From assembly GCA_002688315.1 (NCBI GenBank), contig NZCN01000010.1, positions 7,756-71,755 of the forward strand: a stretch of DNA of 64,000 nt, read 5' to 3'. The notes beneath the pieces were generated by a model. It was not told the origin of the DNA. It made no database searches and saw only the letters and a program-made list of their open reading frames with translations. Below, in pieces: positions 44,721 to 53,806 of this stretch. A program made the translations under genes and the position numbers. Origin of the DNA: Candidatus Woesearchaeota archaeon (GTDB taxonomy: Archaea > Nanobdellota > Nanobdellia > Woesearchaeales > UBA10216). Every line of letters starts with the position of its first letter. The stretch's first letter is position 1.

Positions 44721-44750
44721 CGAGGGGTTAATTAGAATGTTGACTTTACA

Positions 44751-45233
44751 TTAAGGCAGTATTTTTATGTTAAAATATTTTTTAAAATACCCTTTATTCC
44801 TTGTCAGAAGAAGCTCTGCATTATTTTGAGCGTGAGCACCTATAAGAAAATCTGTTAGAATGTGGTTTCTCCACGTAACTTGTGATTTACATTTATTGCA
44901 GTTGAATTTATTCACTGCGCCACATTTAGGGCACTGAATTTGTTTAAATTTTGAGAATTTATGCCATCTCTCAGCAGAAAGATTGAAATCTTCCATAGCA
45001 AAATCATATATTTGCACATCTAAATCTCTTAAAAAGAGATGCAGTTCAGAAATTGCTTCGTTCTTCCTGTATTTTCGCAAAAAAGCTGTAAGGATCTCAG
45101 AATACACAATTGGCGAAATCATCAAGCTGCCCATATTGCTGTATTTCTCAAGTAAAGCGCTACTCTGCCCTAAATATGTTAAATCGTTACCAAGAATATC
45201 AAGTAATATGTTAGTGTCAACCGCAGTTATCAT
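44751..45233 (-). CDS. vapC: PIN-domain toxin (VapC-like) with an inserted CxxC...CxxC zinc ribbon
   Basis: N-terminal ITAVDTNILLDIL. The insert is CPKCGAVNKFNCNKCK. A C-terminal DFLIGAHA follows. Confidence 0.8.
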   Translation of the reverse strand: MITAVDTNILLDILGNDLTYLGQSSALLEKYSNMGSLMISPIVYSEILTAFLRKYRKNEAISELHLFLRDLDVQIYDFAMEDFNLSAERWHKFSKFKQIQCPKCGAVNKFNCNKCKSQVTWRNHILTDFLIGAHAQNNAELLLTRNKGYFKKYFNIKILP

Positions 45234-45436
45234 CTCAACTCCTTCATAATGTCATCAGTTTTAAATCTGCCAAGGCGCCCCTTCCACTTATCAAAAGGTA
45301 GTTTTTTTGGTTTCTTTAGCAAAACAACTTTACCGTGTTCCATTTCAAAGTCTACCTCATCGCCTGGCTTCACACCTAAAGCTGTCCTAAACTGCTTTGG
45401 AATTGTTACCTGAGATTTTTGAGTTAAAGTAGTCAT
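45230..45436 (-). CDS. vapB: AbrB/SpoVT-family antitoxin (VapB-like)
   Basis: KSQVTIPKQFRTALGVKPGDEVDFE is an AbrB swapped-hairpin motif. It overlaps the PIN gene by 4 nt. Confidence 0.8.
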   Translation of the reverse strand: MTTLTQKSQVTIPKQFRTALGVKPGDEVDFEMEHGKVVLLKKPKKLPFDKWKGRLGRFKTDDIMKELR

Positions 45437-45538
45437 AGTAATACTTTTAAAGTAATACGTATTACTATTTAAATCTTACTATTTAGAACTTTTCACCAAT
45501 CAAAAAATATTTAAAACTACATTTTGTTTTGTCATATA

Positions 45539-47804: not shown

Positions 47805-48896
47805 ATGGCAAAGAAAAGACTAATTGACCCTTACGGAAGCGAACTAGTGGAAGATTATACTAAATTGATCGCTGACTTTCATCTTGAAAAGTTTGATGCT
47901 TCGTTATTTCCAAAACCTAACAGGCTTATGAGAAGAGGGGTAGTTTATGCAGGATTAGGGCAGAAAATTATTTCTGATGCTATCAAACAAAAAAAACCGT
48001 TTTACGTTCTTAGCGGCATAATGCCAACTGGAGATAAGATTCATTTTGGAACTAAAATGGTTGTAGAGAACATAGCTTACTTCCAAAAAGTGGGTGCTGA
48101 GGCTTATATTCTAGTAGCTGATTTAGAGGCAGAAGCAACAAGAGGAGTTTCTTTGGAACAAGCTAGAAAAAGAGCCTTTGATTTTCACATACCTGCGTAT
48201 ATCGCACTTGGTTTAGACCCAAAAAAGACTACTTTCTACTTTCAATCAGAGAATGTAGAAGTAATGAGAGCTACTGCACTGTTTTCTAAAAAAGTAACAC
48301 TAAACCAGTTTTTAGCAATGTATGGAAATGCAGATCCTGGAAGAATAATAGGAGCAATAACGCAAGTCGCTGATATTCTTTATCCTCAGTTTAAGAGACG
48401 GATGCCAGGAGTGATTCCTGTTGGCTCTGATCAATTACCACACATATTGCTCACAAGAGATATTGTAGGAAGGATGAAAACACAAAAGTTTGTACCTCCA
48501 AGCACGGTTTTAAACAAGTATGCTCCTTCTCTTGATGGCTCCATGAAGATGTCTAAGTCACAGCCAGAATCATGTATCGAACTGCCTGAGGACCCTAAAA
48601 TTGTCTGTAAGAAGATAAAGCGCGCTTTAAGTGGTGGCAGAGATACTTTAGAAGAGCACAAGCGCCTAGGAGCTGATGTTGAAAAGGATATGGCTTTTGA
48701 ATTGCTTAAACAACATTTAATAGAAGACGATAAAGAGTTAGAGAATATTTACAAAAAATACAAATCAGGAAAAATGACTTCTGGGGAAATAAAAGAAATA
48801 GCATGCGAAAAAATGACAGAATTCATGAATACATTTGAAAAAAAGCTGGAAGAAGTGAAAAAACAAGTTTCTAAATTGAAGTTTGTGAAGGCATAG
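47805..48896 (+). CDS. trpS: Tryptophanyl-tRNA synthetase (archaeal/eukaryotic-like C-terminal region)
   Basis: HIGH-like IHFG, and KMSKS (MKMSKSQPES). The tail, SGGRDTLEEHKRLGADVEKD...EDDKELENIYKKYKSGKMTSGEIKE, aligns by eye with archaeal TrpRS. Confidence 0.8.
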   Translation: MAKKRLIDPYGSELVEDYTKLIADFHLEKFDASLFPKPNRLMRRGVVYAGLGQKIISDAIKQKKPFYVLSGIMPTGDKIHFGTKMVVENIAYFQKVGAEAYILVADLEAEATRGVSLEQARKRAFDFHIPAYIALGLDPKKTTFYFQSENVEVMRATALFSKKVTLNQFLAMYGNADPGRIIGAITQVADILYPQFKRRMPGVIPVGSDQLPHILLTRDIVGRMKTQKFVPPSTVLNKYAPSLDGSMKMSKSQPESCIELPEDPKIVCKKIKRALSGGRDTLEEHKRLGADVEKDMAFELLKQHLIEDDKELENIYKKYKSGKMTSGEIKEIACEKMTEFMNTFEKKLEEVKKQVSKLKFVKA

Positions 48897-48946
48897 AACC
48901 TTTTTTCCAAAGGTTTTTTAAATCCTAGCGGAGTTCTTCAATTTTT

Positions 48947-48982
48947 ATGACTGAATTAATCATAACTGAAAAACCGAAATCT
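48947..48982 (+). pseudogene. Orphaned 5' fragment of topA (first 12 codons), left behind by the insertion
   Basis: It reads MTELIITEKPKS and then diverges to a stop after 11 more codons. 48956-48982 matches 50333-50359 at 24/27 nt. A TTTTAAAT element lies about 27 nt upstream. Confidence 0.6.
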
Positions 48983-49014
48983 TTATATAATAGGACAATT
49001 GTCCCATTTATTCT

Positions 49015-49230
49015 ATGAGGAAACGTGGACCGGATGTAAAAAAGATTGAAACAATAAAACGAGTATTAAAAAGTTATCCTAACGGTTTGTGGATAAGAGA
49101 AATCTCTAGAAAATCAAAGATAAGTAAGTCTACCGTGCATAGATACATAAGAGAATATATGAAGAATGATGTAGAGTGTGTACTAAAAATATCAAATTTG
49201 ATGGAGGTTTATAAGCTTAAGAGGAAATGA
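49015..49230 (+). CDS. Small winged-helix/HTH protein (71 aa)
   Basis: IKRVLKSYPNGLWIREISRKSKISKSTVHRYIREY is HTH-like. Its stop overlaps the endonuclease start (ATGA). Confidence 0.55.
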   Translation: MRKRGPDVKKIETIKRVLKSYPNGLWIREISRKSKISKSTVHRYIREYMKNDVECVLKISNLMEVYKLKRK

Positions 49231-50324
49231 TAACAATAGAAGACTTTAAACCAAGTGAGACTTACTTATTTTTAGAATCTAGCTATAAAAGAGATTTGTT
49301 AGAGGTTGCGATAGCAAAAGCAGGATCGCAAAGAAAACTTGGTACTATTTTAAAGTTGGATAAAGGGTGTGCTTATCAAACCAAAATTTCTACTTGGCTA
49401 CGGCAAAATAATCTCAGATTAGATTTGATACATGCTTTGCACAAATATTTAAGAAAGAAGTTAATAGTCGAAAAGATAAAAGGGCTAAAATCAGAAACAA
49501 CGGGAGGATTAATCACAAATATTAAATTCCCAGTAAGATTATCGCCGGAGTTAGCTAACATTCTTGCTAAATTATACTGTGATGGTTCTGTCACTAAGAG
49601 AAATAAATACACAACAATATATTATAATACGTGTCCGCAGCTTATATCTGAATATAAAGAAAAAATTGGTCATTGTTTTGGAAATTTAAAGTTCAGTGAG
49701 AGTAAGGGGCATGTGTATGCTGTTAGAGTGCCGAATATTATTGGGAAAGTACTATATAAGAAATTTAGGCTAGGTATGAATAGAATTCCTTCTCAAATTA
49801 TGTTAGCTGATAAAGAAATTAAAGCTGCTTACTTAAGGGCTGTTTTTGATGATGAAGGTAATGTCAATAAGATACACGGTCAAATAAGATTGAAAATGAA
49901 ATTTAAAACATTTCTTCAGGATGTAAAGCAATTGTTAGAGGAATTTAGTATAGAGACCTCACCGTTGGGGAAAGACTTTAGTGGTGCTGGACATTTGGCA
50001 TGGTATTTTGTTATTAGCGGTCAATATAACCTCAGAAAATTTTATAAAAGGATTGGGATTTCCCACCCAGACAAAAAGAAGAAACTTAGAAAGCGTCTCA
50101 GAAGCTACAAGCAAAATACATATGGTTATAAAGCAAGATTTGTTATACTTGATATATTAAGAAAAGGGGGAAGTAAAAGTGTGGAAGATTTGGCAAATAT
50201 TGCGGGAAGAGATAGAAGGACAATACAACATCATTTAAACAATCTAATTGAGTCAAAACTTGTTAAATTTACAAAAGTGAAAACTAAGTATTCTTTTAAA
50301 AATTGTTGGGCAAGCGTAAAATGA
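49227..50324 (+). CDS. Double-motif LAGLIDADG homing endonuclease with flanking HTH/wHTH regions
   Basis: Motif 1 is LAKLYCDGSV and motif 2 is LRAVFDDEGNV, about 100 aa apart. The C-terminus is wHTH-like (VEDLANIAGRDRRTIQHHLNNLIESKLV). Confidence 0.85.
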   Translation: MITIEDFKPSETYLFLESSYKRDLLEVAIAKAGSQRKLGTILKLDKGCAYQTKISTWLRQNNLRLDLIHALHKYLRKKLIVEKIKGLKSETTGGLITNIKFPVRLSPELANILAKLYCDGSVTKRNKYTTIYYNTCPQLISEYKEKIGHCFGNLKFSESKGHVYAVRVPNIIGKVLYKKFRLGMNRIPSQIMLADKEIKAAYLRAVFDDEGNVNKIHGQIRLKMKFKTFLQDVKQLLEEFSIETSPLGKDFSGAGHLAWYFVISGQYNLRKFYKRIGISHPDKKKKLRKRLRSYKQNTYGYKARFVILDILRKGGSKSVEDLANIAGRDRRTIQHHLNNLIESKLVKFTKVKTKYSFKNCWASVK

Positions 50325-52504
50325 GTTATACTTTAATAATAACCGAGAAACCGAAATCTGCACAAAAAATTGCAGAAGCTTTGGCAGATGGAAAGCCAAT
50401 AAAAAAAGGTGCAAAGGGAGTTTATTATTACGAGATAACTCATGGAGATAAAGATATAATAGTTGGATCTTCGGTAGGTCATTTATTTGGAATTGCAGAG
50501 AAAACTAAAAAGGGTATGAAATACCCTGTATTTGATGTTGAATGGCAGCCACTATACGAGATAAATAAAGGCGCTGCGTTTTCTAAGAAGTATTATGATA
50601 TGTTAAAAAAGCTAAGCAAGAATGCAGATGTGTTCGTAATCTCGACAGACTTTGATGTCGAGGGGAGCGTCATTGGAATGAACATAATTCGTTTCATCTG
50701 CAAACAGAAAGATGCTTATCGCATGAAATTCTCTACTTTGACCAAGCCTGAGCTCATCAACGCTTTTGAAAATGCGTCGCCCAACCTCGATTGGGGCCAA
50801 GCTGTAGCAGGAGAGACACGGCATCAATTAGATTTTATATATGGTGTGAATCTCAGCCGAGCATTAACTTCCTCAATAAAAAAAGCAGGGCTTTTTAAGA
50901 TACTCAGCATTGGAAGAGTGCAAGGCCCAACATTGAAGATTGTGGTTGAGAAAGAAAAAGAAATCTCTGCATTTAAACCTGTGCCTTTCTGGCAACTGGA
51001 AATAACAGGAAACGTAAAGAACGGAGTCATAACTGCACTGCATAAAACAGACAAGTTCTGGAAGAAAGATGAAGCAGGGAAGATTTACAAAAAAGTAAAA
51101 GGAAAAAACGGAGAAGTAAGCGAAGTAAAAAAACAGGAATTCCAGCAAAAAGCTCCTACCCCTTTTGATTTAACAACACTTCAAACAGAAGCTTACAGAT
51201 GCTTTGGAATAAGTCCGAAGATTACTCTTTCGGTTGCGCAAGACTTGTACACTTCTGGATTGATTTCTTACCCAAGAACATCTTCACAACAATTGCCTCC
51301 AGCAATAGAATATGAGAAGATTCTGAAACAATTGCAAAAGAACAGCGATTACAAAGATTTATGCAGCGAATTGTTAAAGAAAAAACTGCAGCCTAATAAC
51401 GGAAAGAAAACAGATCCTGCGCATCCTGCAATCTATCCGACAGGAGTTTCTGGGAAAGCACTCAAAGAGTTGAATCAAAAAATATACGACATTATAGCCA
51501 GAAGGTTTATGGCAACGTTTGCTGAAGCGGCGATAAGAGAAACAATGACAATAACTATTGAAGTGGAAGAAGAAAACTTTGTTTCAGCAGGAACAAGAAC
51601 AAAATATGAAGGCTGGCACAAATACTATGGGCCGTATGTAAAGCTGAAAGAGGAAGAATTGCCTGAAGTTAAGAAAGGAGAAAGCTTCAAGCAGAAAAAA
51701 CTGGACCTGCAGGAGAAAGAAACAAAACCGCCTGCAAGGTACACGCCTGCTTCTATTATAAAAGAGCTTGAGAAAAGAAATTTGGGAACAAAAGCAACAA
51801 GGGCTGAAGTGATAGACACTCTTTACAGGAGAGATTATGTTGTTGATAAAGCATTAACAGCAACTGATTTAGGAATAAAAACAGTGGAAACACTTGAAAA
51901 ATACGTTCCAAGAGTTGTTGATGAAGAATTAACAAAGCACTTTGAAGAAGAGATGGAGGAAATAAGACAGAAGAAAAAAGAAGAAGAAGTTGTGTTAAAA
52001 GAAGCTGAAAATCTTCTAACAGAAATACTTGGTAAATTCAAGAAAAAAGAAATGGATATTGGAAAGAATTTATTTGAAGCAACAAAAGCAAGTGAAGAAA
52101 AACTAAATACCATTGGAAAATGCATGAGCTGCGAAGGAATTTTAATGATGAAGCGCGGCAAGTTTGGAAAGTTTATTGCTTGCAGTAAATATCCGGATTG
52201 CAAAGTCACCTTTAAGCTTCCAAGCAACGGACTAATAAAAAATACAGAGGAAATATGTGATGACTGCAAGCATCCGAAAATAATGGTGATAAAAAAGAGA
52301 AAAAAACCGCAGATAGTTTGCATTAACCTTGACTGTCCTACAAAAGTAATTGAAAGTGATAAGGAAAACACAAAATGCGAGAAATGCAAGGAAGGAACAA
52401 TCGTCATACGAAAGAGTGTTTACGGACAGTTCTTAGCGTGCGATAATTTCCCAAAGTGCAGGAACATACTCAAAACAGAGAAAAAAGACGACGATAAATC
52501 ATAA
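50321..52504 (+). CDS. topA: Type IA DNA topoisomerase (TopA / Topo III-like) with C-terminal zinc ribbons
   Basis: Toprim N-terminus LIITEKPKSAQKIA and DFDVEGS (DxD). ISYPRTSS carries the catalytic Tyr. There are several CxxC...CxxC ribbons at the C-terminus. The ATG at 50321 overlaps the endonuclease stop. Confidence 0.9.
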   Translation: MSYTLIITEKPKSAQKIAEALADGKPIKKGAKGVYYYEITHGDKDIIVGSSVGHLFGIAEKTKKGMKYPVFDVEWQPLYEINKGAAFSKKYYDMLKKLSKNADVFVISTDFDVEGSVIGMNIIRFICKQKDAYRMKFSTLTKPELINAFENASPNLDWGQAVAGETRHQLDFIYGVNLSRALTSSIKKAGLFKILSIGRVQGPTLKIVVEKEKEISAFKPVPFWQLEITGNVKNGVITALHKTDKFWKKDEAGKIYKKVKGKNGEVSEVKKQEFQQKAPTPFDLTTLQTEAYRCFGISPKITLSVAQDLYTSGLISYPRTSSQQLPPAIEYEKILKQLQKNSDYKDLCSELLKKKLQPNNGKKTDPAHPAIYPTGVSGKALKELNQKIYDIIARRFMATFAEAAIRETMTITIEVEEENFVSAGTRTKYEGWHKYYGPYVKLKEEELPEVKKGESFKQKKLDLQEKETKPPARYTPASIIKELEKRNLGTKATRAEVIDTLYRRDYVVDKALTATDLGIKTVETLEKYVPRVVDEELTKHFEEEMEEIRQKKKEEEVVLKEAENLLTEILGKFKKKEMDIGKNLFEATKASEEKLNTIGKCMSCEGILMMKRGKFGKFIACSKYPDCKVTFKLPSNGLIKNTEEICDDCKHPKIMVIKKRKKPQIVCINLDCPTKVIESDKENTKCEKCKEGTIVIRKSVYGQFLACDNFPKCRNILKTEKKDDDKS

Positions 52505-53806
52505 CTCAATTGATTTTTCTTCTTTCAGCAACGTCGGGCTTGAGCCGCCATGCCATGTAATTCTTGGGCGGACTCTTATTGGGTAAAGTCTTTCGTTGGT
52601 ATCATCAAATAGTATTGCTGCGCCTTTAACATCAGGCAAATCCTGCAGTGTCTTGTCCAAGCCAGTTTTCATGTAAGTTTGCATCAAGTTACCAAGAGCA
52701 TCAACATCAATCTTTGCAGTAATATGGTGAGCTATTACAATGTCAGACTGAGTCATTACATCAGTGTGGATTTGTCCTGGTTGTTGGGAAGCAAGAACTA
52801 ACGATATTCCTGGCTGTCTGCCTTCTCTTAGAAGAGTTTGCAATGCGTCTGAAGCAGGAGTTGTTCCTTTTCTAGGAAGGAATTCATGAGCTTCATCAAC
52901 CATTATCCAAATTAACGGAACTTCTTTTGTTTCAGGCTCTTCACTCTGAACAAATCTTGTGAATGTCTTAACATCTCTATATTCTTCTGCTTTTCTTGCT
53001 TCCATTCTTTCTGAAAAAAGTTTCTTGCTAATTAAGCCAATAACCAAAGCGCGAACACTTGCTCTGTTAACAGCAGAAGCATAGCCGCTAACATCTATAA
53101 CTGTTATTTGCCCAGCAACAGCCAACTCAGAAAATGAAATTCCGTCTTTGCTAAATAACCCCCAGGATTTAGCTGTTATGAAAAGATTTTCAGCAGAAGC
53201 CTGCGTATAGTGGTCAGTTCTATCATCTGACTGAATAGCTGCAATGATGTCATCAATGTCAAAATCTTCTTTTAAGTTTGAGATTACTCTTCCAATTAAA
53301 GCACCGATAGGGCTTGTTAATTCAACATTAAAGGTAGAGCACCAGTCAGTTATAGACAGTTCAGAGGGTTTTATTGAAAAAGCTGCATCGACTGGAATGC
53401 CTTTCTCTTTAGCACTTTCAAAATGACCTAAAGGAACGTAAATTTTATTGTTGATATCAGAATGTTTAAAGCCCCATTCCCTTAGAAGGCTTTCATCTTT
53501 TTTATTTTCATATTTCATTGTCCAATAAATGCCCATAGTGTCAAACATTACAACTGAAAGTTTTGAAGTAACTTCTTCAGGCAAAGTCATCATGCCTTCT
53601 GCCATTGACATCATTGAATAACTTTTGCCACTACCACGCTTGCCAGTAACAAAAACAACGTGACTTCTAGCAACATCCATGAAAACATTGTTTGAAAGCG
53701 AGCTAGTTTGCCCCATTTTTACATAATGCTTTCCAAGCAAGAACATAGCTCTGGTTCCGAATTTTCTTTTATCCTCAGCATCCCTGCCAACTATTATCTC
53801 ATACAT
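52499..53806 (-). CDS. HerA/FtsK-like P-loop ATPase (DUF87-type)
   Basis: HVVFVTGKRGSGKSYS (Walker A) and LIWIMVDEAHEF (Walker B). 435 aa. Confidence 0.7.
   Translation of the reverse strand: MYEIIVGRDAEDKRKFGTRAMFLLGKHYVKMGQTSSLSNNVFMDVARSHVVFVTGKRGSGKSYSMMSMAEGMMTLPEEVTSKLSVVMFDTMGIYWTMKYENKKDESLLREWGFKHSDINNKIYVPLGHFESAKEKGIPVDAAFSIKPSELSITDWCSTFNVELTSPIGALIGRVISNLKEDFDIDDIIAAIQSDDRTDHYTQASAENLFITAKSWGLFSKDGISFSELAVAGQITVIDVSGYASAVNRASVRALVIGLISKKLFSERMEARKAEEYRDVKTFTRFVQSEEPETKEVPLIWIMVDEAHEFLPRKGTTPASDALQTLLREGRQPGISLVLASQQPGQIHTDVMTQSDIVIAHHITAKIDVDALGNLMQTYMKTGLDKTLQDLPDVKGAAILFDDTNERLYPIRVRPRITWHGGSSPTLLKEEKSIEL

Follow-up and report, generated by a model that had tools for sequence, protein, structure and literature searches.

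A free-standing LAGLIDADG endonuclease cassette that probably replaces the 5' end of the topoisomerase gene topA in a marine DPANN archaeon

Phages and organelles are well-known sources of free-standing homing endonucleases, and the LAGLIDADG enzymes encoded by archaeal chromosomes have to our knowledge hardly been described outside inteins and rRNA introns. During intronless homing of the seg and mob genes of T4-like phages, an endonuclease encoded beside a conserved gene makes a nearby cut in the allele that lacks the endonuclease gene, and repair of the break copies this gene into the recipient along with its flanks. Phage nuclease genes have also been located at exchange boundaries (PMC10448857). 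The mORF elements of fungal mitochondria, with Allomyces macrogynus atp6 and Glomus as examples, replace the 3' end of the genes atp6, atp9, cox2 and nad3: a LAGLIDADG or GIY-YIG open reading frame (ORF) brings a foreign C-terminal end that is joined to the gene, and the native C-terminus is displaced downstream, where it remains identical at the protein level to that of relatives (PMC3630166). For the mitochondria of Tremella, N-terminal duplications have been reported in connection with mobile elements (PMC7315562). Here we describe a locus within a stretch of 64,000 nucleotides from a Candidatus Woesearchaeota archaeon (contig NZCN01000010.1, positions 7,756 to 71,755; referred to as the window), in which a cassette encoding a LAGLIDADG endonuclease is inserted into the 5' end of the topoisomerase gene topA. 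A preliminary description, prepared from the sequence alone, knew of no described case of such an architecture, a view that the fungal mitochondrial precedents do not bear out (PMC3630166; for N-terminal duplications PMC7315562). Full-text searches retrieved no description of this endonuclease family or of any topA-linked endonuclease.

The window contains two copies of the start of topA. The left copy begins with an ATG at position 48947 and reads MTELIITEKPKS, after which 11 unrelated codons (LYNRTIVPFIL) follow the breakpoint and lead to a TGA stop codon at 49016-49018. The right copy begins with an ATG at position 50321, 1374 nt past 48947, reads MSYTLIITEKPKSAQK and is the only copy that continues as a full ORF. 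The deduced 727-aa protein was identified as archaeal topoisomerase I by its match to TIGR01057 (topA_arch, 5e-227, above the curated cut-off), and it comprises the Toprim and Topoisom_bac domains as well as Zn ribbons according to Pfam. Both copies share a direct repeat of 27 nt with 24 identical positions (89%) and a spacing of 1377 nt, which a repeat search returned as the longest direct repeat of the 2-kb region. A 24/27 match to the first 60 nt of topA occurred in none of 2000 shuffles of the spacer between trpS and the helix-turn-helix (HTH) gene of the cassette, the maximum being 20, and none of 40 shuffles of the 2-kb region contained any pair matching at 24 of 27 positions. The features of the disrupted gene and its upstream neighbour are as follows, with loci from other genomes designated by L and a number.

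47805 to 48896, plus strand: trpS, encoding a class I Trp/Tyr tRNA synthetase (Pfam tRNA-synt_1b, 1.8e-46) that is 84% identical to its counterpart in L001 and 79% to that in L012
48914 to 48923, plus strand: presumed native topA promoter with the TATA-like box TTTTTTAAAT, which aligns with the empty sites of L001 and L012
48947 to 48982, plus strand: native 5' stub of topA, codons 1 to 12 (MTELIITEKPKS), identical in 12 of 12 amino acids to the N-termini of L001 and L012
48947 to 49018, plus strand: residual stub ORF of 23 codons, whose TGA overlaps the ATG of the HTH gene
48956 to 48982, plus strand: left copy of the 27-nt repeat, from the repeat search and the shuffle test
48983 to 50320, plus strand: inserted cassette of 1338 bp, absent from relatives according to the comparison with empty sites
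50321 to 52504, plus strand: functional topA (TIGR01057), native to the lineage except for the first ~8 codons
50333 to 50359, plus strand: right copy of the 27-nt repeat, whose 3' part AAACCGAAATCT is host-type

The history of this arrangement was deduced from related genomes. A scan for topA proteins with one genome per species provided 71 loci, mostly from Woesearchaeota and other DPANN archaea, and trpS is directly followed by topA in eight of them (L001, L012, L002, L003, L005, L006, L009 and L060). The loci L001 and L012 represent the two closest relatives; their topA gene starts with MTELIITEKPKSAQR (N-terminus MTELIITEKPKSAQRIAEAL) and is preceded by the same promoter box at the same spacing as in the window, where the box TTTTTTAAAT lies ~27 nt before the ATG of the stub in a leaderless-type arrangement. 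At the nucleotide level the stub differs from L001 at 6 and from L012 at 8 positions, and all of these differences are synonymous. Since the nearest relatives are uninterrupted and their promoter and first 12 residues correspond to the left stub, the insert lies in a once-intact gene. The functional topA gene of the window shows an even identity of 71-75% to L001 and L012 along its length. Its start is foreign to the clade of the window: the residues MSYT are native, within the data set, only in topA of the Aenigmatarchaeota type (L039, L045, L046 and L059). Because the stub equals the relatives and MSYT is native only to that other type, the left copy is ancestral and the right copy is foreign-started. 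Compared with the native 5' end, the occupied one carries three substitutions in the 27-nt repeat and a start that is one codon longer (MSYT for MTE).

Empty sites are not confined to the trpS neighbourhood, since loci with a metallophosphatase gene upstream of topA likewise occur as empty (L031, L048, L050 and L052) and as occupied versions (L088 and L089). By tblastn, the endonuclease family was found in none of the 71 species-representative topA loci. A look-up of the exact trpS sequence returned 13 assembled contigs; the cassette is present at each of the three places displayed, and a further nine were listed as similar. An assembly artefact was excluded, since every place returned for these 13 independent contigs has the same arrangement.

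These results bear on most of what the preliminary description had proposed for the locus. Both topA starts, with their coordinates and readings, were confirmed on the sequence; the 24/27 repeat was recovered by the repeat search, and the 2000 and 40 shuffles showed the match to be far beyond chance; and the two ORFs between the copies, announced as a 71-aa HTH protein and a LAGLIDADG endonuclease, both found Pfam matches. The two ATGA overlaps at 49227 and 50321 are real, and a third overlap at 49015-49018 had been missed. The expected empty sites, with trpS followed directly by an uninterrupted topA, are present in the nearest relatives, and they support the proposal of a cassette that lies 12 codons into topA, leaves the native 5' end behind and has a replacement start fused to the stop of the endonuclease gene. 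The LAGLIDADG assignment, for which a profile search had been suggested, held in Pfam, in the profile match to PI-PfuI and in Foldseek.

The cassette has a GC content of 31.7%, compared with ~37% in the flanking genes, and includes the following features.

48983 to 48990, plus strand: TATA box TTATATAA of the cassette, a putative promoter element 25 nt before the ATG of the HTH gene
48993 to 49004, no strand assigned: palindrome GGACAATTGTCC between the TATA box and the HTH start, a putative operator that the HTH protein would bind
49015 to 49230, plus strand: 71-aa HTH protein, putative autoregulator of the cassette (Pfam HTH_IclR 2e-5, HTH_24 5e-5)
49227 to 50324, plus strand: free-standing LAGLIDADG endonuclease of 365 aa (LAGLIDADG_3 8.9e-14) with a C-terminal HTH_20/ArsR-like winged helix
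50321 to 50342, plus strand: cassette-borne topA start ATGAGTTATACTTTAATAATAA (MSYTLII), whose ATG overlaps the TGA of the endonuclease gene

The genes of the locus form a chain with three stop/start overlaps, namely the TGA of the stub (49016-49018) with the ATG of the HTH gene (49015-49017) and the ATGA motifs at 49227 and 50321. Homologues of the 71-aa HTH protein occupy the same position in L072 (75% identity), L074, L083 and L087. The palindrome pattern occurs once in the 64-kb window, and a TATA box followed by the palindrome pattern RGACAANTGTCY was found at the same place at the left end of every cassette with a small HTH gene (L072, L074, L083, L087, L093 and L095). Judged from this placement, TTATATAA and GGACAATTGTCC would represent the cassette's own promoter and the operator of the HTH protein. 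Read-through from the old topA promoter is not required, since the cassette has its own TATA box and palindromic operator; of the earlier suggestion that the old promoter reads into the element, the promoter box stands, being conserved in relatives, and the read-through is dispensable.

At the right end of the cassette, the 22 nt of ATGAGTTATACTTTAATAATAA are found again (ATGAGTTAYACKTTAATAATAA) in the independent cassette of L072. The 3'-terminal part of the endonuclease gene contains a candidate internal topA promoter, TTTTAAAA at 50294-50301; its distance from the ATG is 4-5 nt too short, judged by the native promoter. Since no spacer and no obvious promoter of its own precede topA, and the genes abut or overlap in the tandem loci, topA is most likely co-transcribed and translationally coupled with the endonuclease gene. 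An inverted repeat of 22 nt (50321-50342/50422-50443, 82% complementary) could fold the new topA start (minimum free energy of -31.5 kcal/mol for the first 130 nt); this hairpin is not conserved in L072 or L001 and is probably due to chance. Extra small ORFs on the minus strand (83-96 aa, one or two per locus) were noticed in L074 (4020-4658), L083 (948-1199) and L093 (2494-2784), and they gave no Pfam or PHROG match. Because some inserts hold such extra ORFs between the old neighbour gene and the cassette promoter, the cassette content varies.

The predicted 365-aa endonuclease consists of an N-terminal helical, HTH-like domain, two LAGLIDADG domains and the C-terminal winged helix. Its two LAGLIDADG motifs are LAKLYCDG, with the catalytic residue D119, and AVFDDEG, with the catalytic residue E210. 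The AF2 model of the protein (pLDDT 89.3, pTM 0.80) was used in a Foldseek search that gave the TliVMA intein endonuclease (7e-10), PI-PfuI, PI-PkoII, PI-SceI and I-DmoI (target TM ~0.72) as best matches, and WhiA structures lower in the list (3hyi, 2e-6, and 8dy9). A profile match to PI-PfuI was obtained at 1.4e-9, NCBIfam matches were restricted to the intein portions of intein-containing proteins, and no family match to a Hint splicing domain was detected in the endonuclease. In an alignment of 23 members, D119 is present in 22, and both E210 and K223, located 13 residues after E210, are invariant; E117 and K130 of I-DmoI have the same spacing of 13 residues (PMC3384342). The dN/dS ratio is 0.12-0.20 in every close pair of endonucleases, indicating purifying selection. 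The protein is thus predicted to be an intein-type double-domain LAGLIDADG enzyme that lacks the splicing domain and would cleave a target site in DNA. Deviations were found in L072, whose protein has Asn in place of Asp in motif 1, and in the copies of L072 and L095, which are devoid of the C-terminal winged helix; these changes fit a decaying homing-endonuclease gene.

The endonuclease family is rare, with 26 detectable relatives among 5.8 billion protein clusters (27 clusters in all); a metagenome scan added only seven loci, and no member was found in viral contigs. Every member with enough flanking sequence sits at the 5' end of topA. In the tandem loci (the window, L072/73, L074/75, L086, L087, L088, L089, L093 and L095/96) the stop codon of the endonuclease gene overlaps or runs past the ATG of topA, and in the divergent loci (L076/77, L078, L080 and L085) the endonuclease gene is located ~300 bp upstream of topA. 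The upstream neighbour varies by locus and can be trpS, a tyrS-like gene or a metallophosphatase gene. A rough topA tree places the occupied loci in at least four positions with empty alleles nested among them, and the endonuclease tree comprises a divergent-type clade and a tandem-type clade. The leaders of divergent-type loci contain two conserved hairpins (L076:2490-2640, L078:2030-2180, L080:440-590, L085:1595-1755, L079:110-272 and L082:45-204). The first extends over ~75 nt (AAGAGAACACGCAAAACTGC...GCAGTTTCGC...TCTCTT), and the second (CTCCAAAG...CTTTGGAGGTG) would sequester a Shine-Dalgarno-like GGAGGTG just before the ATG of the endonuclease gene. The alignment contains a few pairs with compensatory changes, neither hairpin matched an Rfam family, and short tandem repeats such as ACTGGACACTGGACA are located nearby.

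Native stubs of topA are present in at least two lineages besides that of the window, and one of them has begun to decay. The locus L072 has the architecture of the window, with a stub reading MAELIITEKPKA up to its stop codon, TATA box and palindrome, HTH gene and endonuclease gene, followed by MSYTLIISEKPKAAQR. The stub encodes exactly the N-terminus that is native to the L072 clade (L003, L005, L006 and L060), with 3-5 differences that are all synonymous. Codon 2 specifies Thr in the clade of the window and Ala in that of L072, and codon 12 specifies Ser and Ala, respectively. Since codon 12 is host-type in both topA copies of the window (Ser) as well as of L072 (Ala), the right junction must lie inside the repeat, in keeping with resolution by homology. 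On the left, the native sequence breaks off cleanly behind codon 12, and window and L072 share both this breakpoint and a similar sequence at the left junction. In L083, the native promoter and only ~4 codons are kept before a different insert follows, and L095/96 has retained the native promoter with a partly deleted stub. The cassettes of L095/96 and L072 show 88% amino acid identity (dS 0.47, dN/dS 0.13), whereas those of the window and L072 are only 58% identical. Stubs that are clade-specific and differ only synonymously must have belonged to a functional gene until a short time ago. Because the clade-specific stubs differ only synonymously although these cassettes are 58% identical, separate and fairly recent insertions, or homing between related alleles, are indicated rather than a single ancient event.

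Taken together, the locus probably harbours a free-standing homing-endonuclease element that is specialised for the 5' end of archaeal topA genes, replaces that end and becomes co-expressed with the gene. The mobile unit of ~1.36 kb would consist of a promoter with palindromic operator, the gene of a small HTH regulator, the endonuclease gene and a substitute topA start, the latter comprising at the 3' end of the unit an ATG that overlaps the endonuclease stop and ~7 codons. The enzyme would cut a cassette-free topA gene in the E-K-P region of Toprim, inside its first twelve codons or so, and the uninterrupted site can be reconstructed as promoter region plus ATGACTGAATTAATCATAACTGAAAAACCGAAATCTGCACAAAAAATTGC. 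The break would then be repaired by copying the cassette from an occupied allele. On the right side, resolution by homology inside topA would fuse the recipient gene seamlessly to the start supplied by the cassette. To the left of the insert, a dead stub made up of the native promoter and codons 1 to 12 would stay behind, either through end-joining at the break, which would explain the differing breakpoint of L083, or through recombination within the existing stub of the donor, which would explain the identical breakpoint of window and L072. The new 5' end, with the first ~25 nt changed and one codon added, presumably destroys the target site.

Several observations weigh against this explanation. 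Sliding identity comparisons of topA with L001, L012 and L072 revealed no long co-conversion tract, and no empty allele of the same species was seen in the look-up of the exact trpS sequence (13 contigs, three places shown). In the functional copy, the 12 nt before the breakpoint and all of the sequence after it are unaltered; a target site with the breakpoint at its centre would accordingly persist, and immunity must rest on the changes 13-25 nt upstream. A seemingly empty site would also arise if the cassette were lost precisely through recombination of the 27-nt repeats. Furthermore, the trees of the endonuclease and of topA broadly agree, which also fits a long vertical association with losses, and the divergent arrangement and the extra HTH domains fit a regulator as well.

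Accordingly, the protein could also be regarded as a domesticated, WhiA-like regulator of topA, composed of a LAGLIDADG core and a winged helix and accompanied by the small HTH protein, that is inherited vertically, often lost and no longer a mobile nuclease. We consider this improbable, even though a LAGLIDADG core with a C-terminal HTH does resemble WhiA, which is among the Foldseek matches, and the strict linkage to the 5' end of topA, including the regulator-like divergent loci, the congruent trees and the purifying selection acting even on the truncated L072/L095 pair (dN/dS 0.13) are all in agreement with it. The catalytic residues are absent from WhiA, a protein found universally in its lineages (PMC3384342), whereas the topA-linked endonuclease has kept these residues, with D119 and E210 conserved, and its gene is sporadic, the family being rare and patchy with empty alleles in the closest relatives. 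A regulator would moreover leave the insertion inside a coding sequence, the dead stubs and the foreign start region unexplained. Another explanation assumes a single ancient and now immobile insertion whose patchy occurrence results from repeated precise excision via the direct repeats rather than from homing. Recombination of 48956-48982 with 50333-50359 would indeed restore exactly the native-type gene, about three losses suffice for the super-clade of window and L072, and these two loci share the breakpoint at codon 12 together with a similar left junction. The stubs, however, are clade-specific (Thr2/Ser12 in the window clade, Ala2/Ala12 in the L072 clade), and purely synonymous differences are not expected for a pseudogene as old as cassettes that are 58% identical, given that the stub of L095 demonstrates that decay occurs. 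As the breakpoint and the cassette content of L083 differ as well and the catalytic residues are still under selection, a single ancient insertion appears rather unlikely.

Least credible, and in our estimation very improbable, is an intron (group I, group II or bulge-helix-bulge) or an intein that would join two half-genes and render the second ATG irrelevant. Removal of the 1377 nt between the repeats would be in frame, and the sole paper on homing endonucleases of Woesearchaeota that was found concerns the group I introns of rRNA genes in which these enzymes are encoded (PMC6125680). Nevertheless, the interval 48500-50800 gave no Rfam intron match at E<=10, and a scripted search of both junctions revealed no canonical bulge-helix-bulge at an in-frame distance, only weak AU-rich pairings at chance level. 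The ORF of the stub stops 11 codons past the breakpoint, the endonuclease is encoded in a different frame, has a start and a stop codon of its own and lacks a Hint domain, and the ATG and MSYT codons supplied by the cassette are conserved between window and L072, with stop/start or ORF overlap in all tandem loci. The initial view that the element is neither an intein nor obviously an intron was thus upheld, as neither a Hint domain nor an Rfam intron nor a convincing bulge-helix-bulge was detected. An insertion sequence or transposon was likewise rejected, since no transposase match above threshold (only weak PHROG matches at the HTH level) and no terminal inverted repeats at the cassette ends were found. 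The reading as a target-site duplication was discarded because the two copies of the apparent duplication do not match perfectly and the right one starts with foreign sequence.

With a homing element as the preferred explanation, its consequences for the host gene can be considered. One may speculate, as a minority option, that the element has captured topA expression, with topA separated from its native promoter and placed last in the overlapping chain of stub, HTH gene, endonuclease gene and topA behind a repressor-operated cassette promoter. If this were true, the host could neither silence nor delete the selfish gene without losing topA, which would amount to addiction by operon capture, and a mobile element would share control over supercoiling homeostasis in these archaea with tiny genomes. 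The same state could be described as that of an endonuclease halfway towards becoming a domesticated regulator of topA.

The neighbourhood of topA contains further features. In the window, the 3' end of topA overlaps by 6 nt (52499-52504) a convergent gene for a HerA-like ATPase (52499-53806, minus strand; DUF87, 5e-9), and L001 has ~1.2 kb more between these two genes. The gene calls of an identical TARA contig (L090, 1447-2132) place a gene pair for a PIN-domain protein and a MazE-type antitoxin at ~44750-45440 on the minus strand, ~2.4 kb upstream of trpS; it appears to be an ordinary toxin-antitoxin pair. In L037, trpS and topA are 1 kb apart, and the space is occupied by an ordinary gene for a 226-aa protein and not by an endonuclease gene. 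The locus L016 (3895-5187, minus strand) contains a different ORF of 430 aa with two LAGLIDADG-like motifs (LGLSLGDG and LKGLFAAEG), for which Pfam LAGLIDADG_3 gave only E=1e-3 and a profile comparison detected no significant relationship to the endonuclease family of the window. This ORF is divergently oriented between a tyrS-like gene and an intact topA promoter, and endonucleases of more than one lineage may preferentially occupy the region in front of topA. In L072 (2472-4662), a tyrS-like synthetase gene (373 aa) is followed by an ORF of 196 aa without known function and by a 140-aa duplicate of the C-terminal end of the synthetase. The duplicate is 90.7% identical to the full copy and slightly closer to relatives (87% versus 84%), which looks like a 3'-end replacement of the mORF type beside the replacement at a 5' end.

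If interpreted as a homing element, the topA cassette offers a third solution by which a protein-coding gene can be colonised without an intron or intein, namely by carrying a replacement gene end. This route would work at the 5' end, including the start codon, in a cellular chromosome, and it would have been taken repeatedly in DPANN archaea. The series of loci with a fresh stub, a decaying stub and no stub should be useful for studying the life cycle of such elements, and the enzyme is a candidate for a new LAGLIDADG specificity with accessory DNA-binding domains. Short N-terminal 'pseudogenes' beside endonuclease genes may moreover serve as markers of gene-end replacement and of the horizontal exchange of gene fragments.

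Among the known systems, the archaeal intein endonucleases PI-PfuI, PI-PkoII and TliVMA and the intron-encoded I-DmoI are the best matches to the core of the enzyme, with which they share two LAGLIDADG domains and the Asp/Glu pair, and, like them, the topA element would target a highly conserved motif of an essential gene. The topA element differs from them in having no Hint domain, in not being inserted in frame and in lacking a ribozyme or bulge-helix-bulge, and its protein adds an N-terminal helical domain and a winged helix. The seg and mob enzymes of T4-like phages belong to the GIY-YIG or HNH type, occupy intergenic positions or divide a gene into two functional halves, supply no replacement gene end and act in phages rather than in cellular chromosomes. 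Organellar elements annotated as introns resemble the cassette in that the insert carries a homologue of part of the host gene and thereby duplicates a gene fragment, and in that gain and loss swap gene fragments between lineages; only one of six, however, was shown to be spliced, their duplicates are long and exon-sized, and neither the replacement of a start codon nor an operon-like coupling has been described for them. The likeness to the mORFs extends further, since in both cases a free-standing endonuclease ORF is accompanied by a foreign end of the target gene that is joined to the gene, and the displaced native end is kept nearby, presumably unexpressed and with only synonymous differences from close relatives. 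The mORFs act on the 3' (C-terminal) end of genes in organelle genomes, often by in-frame fusion, whereas the topA cassette concerns the 5' end and the start codon of an essential chromosomal gene of an archaeon and leaves the native promoter behind. It moreover appears to bring its own promoter, operator and regulator, with the host gene positioned downstream of the endonuclease gene by a stop/start overlap. The element is therefore best read as an archaeal mirror image, in a marine DPANN archaeon, of the mORF trick of fungal mitochondria.

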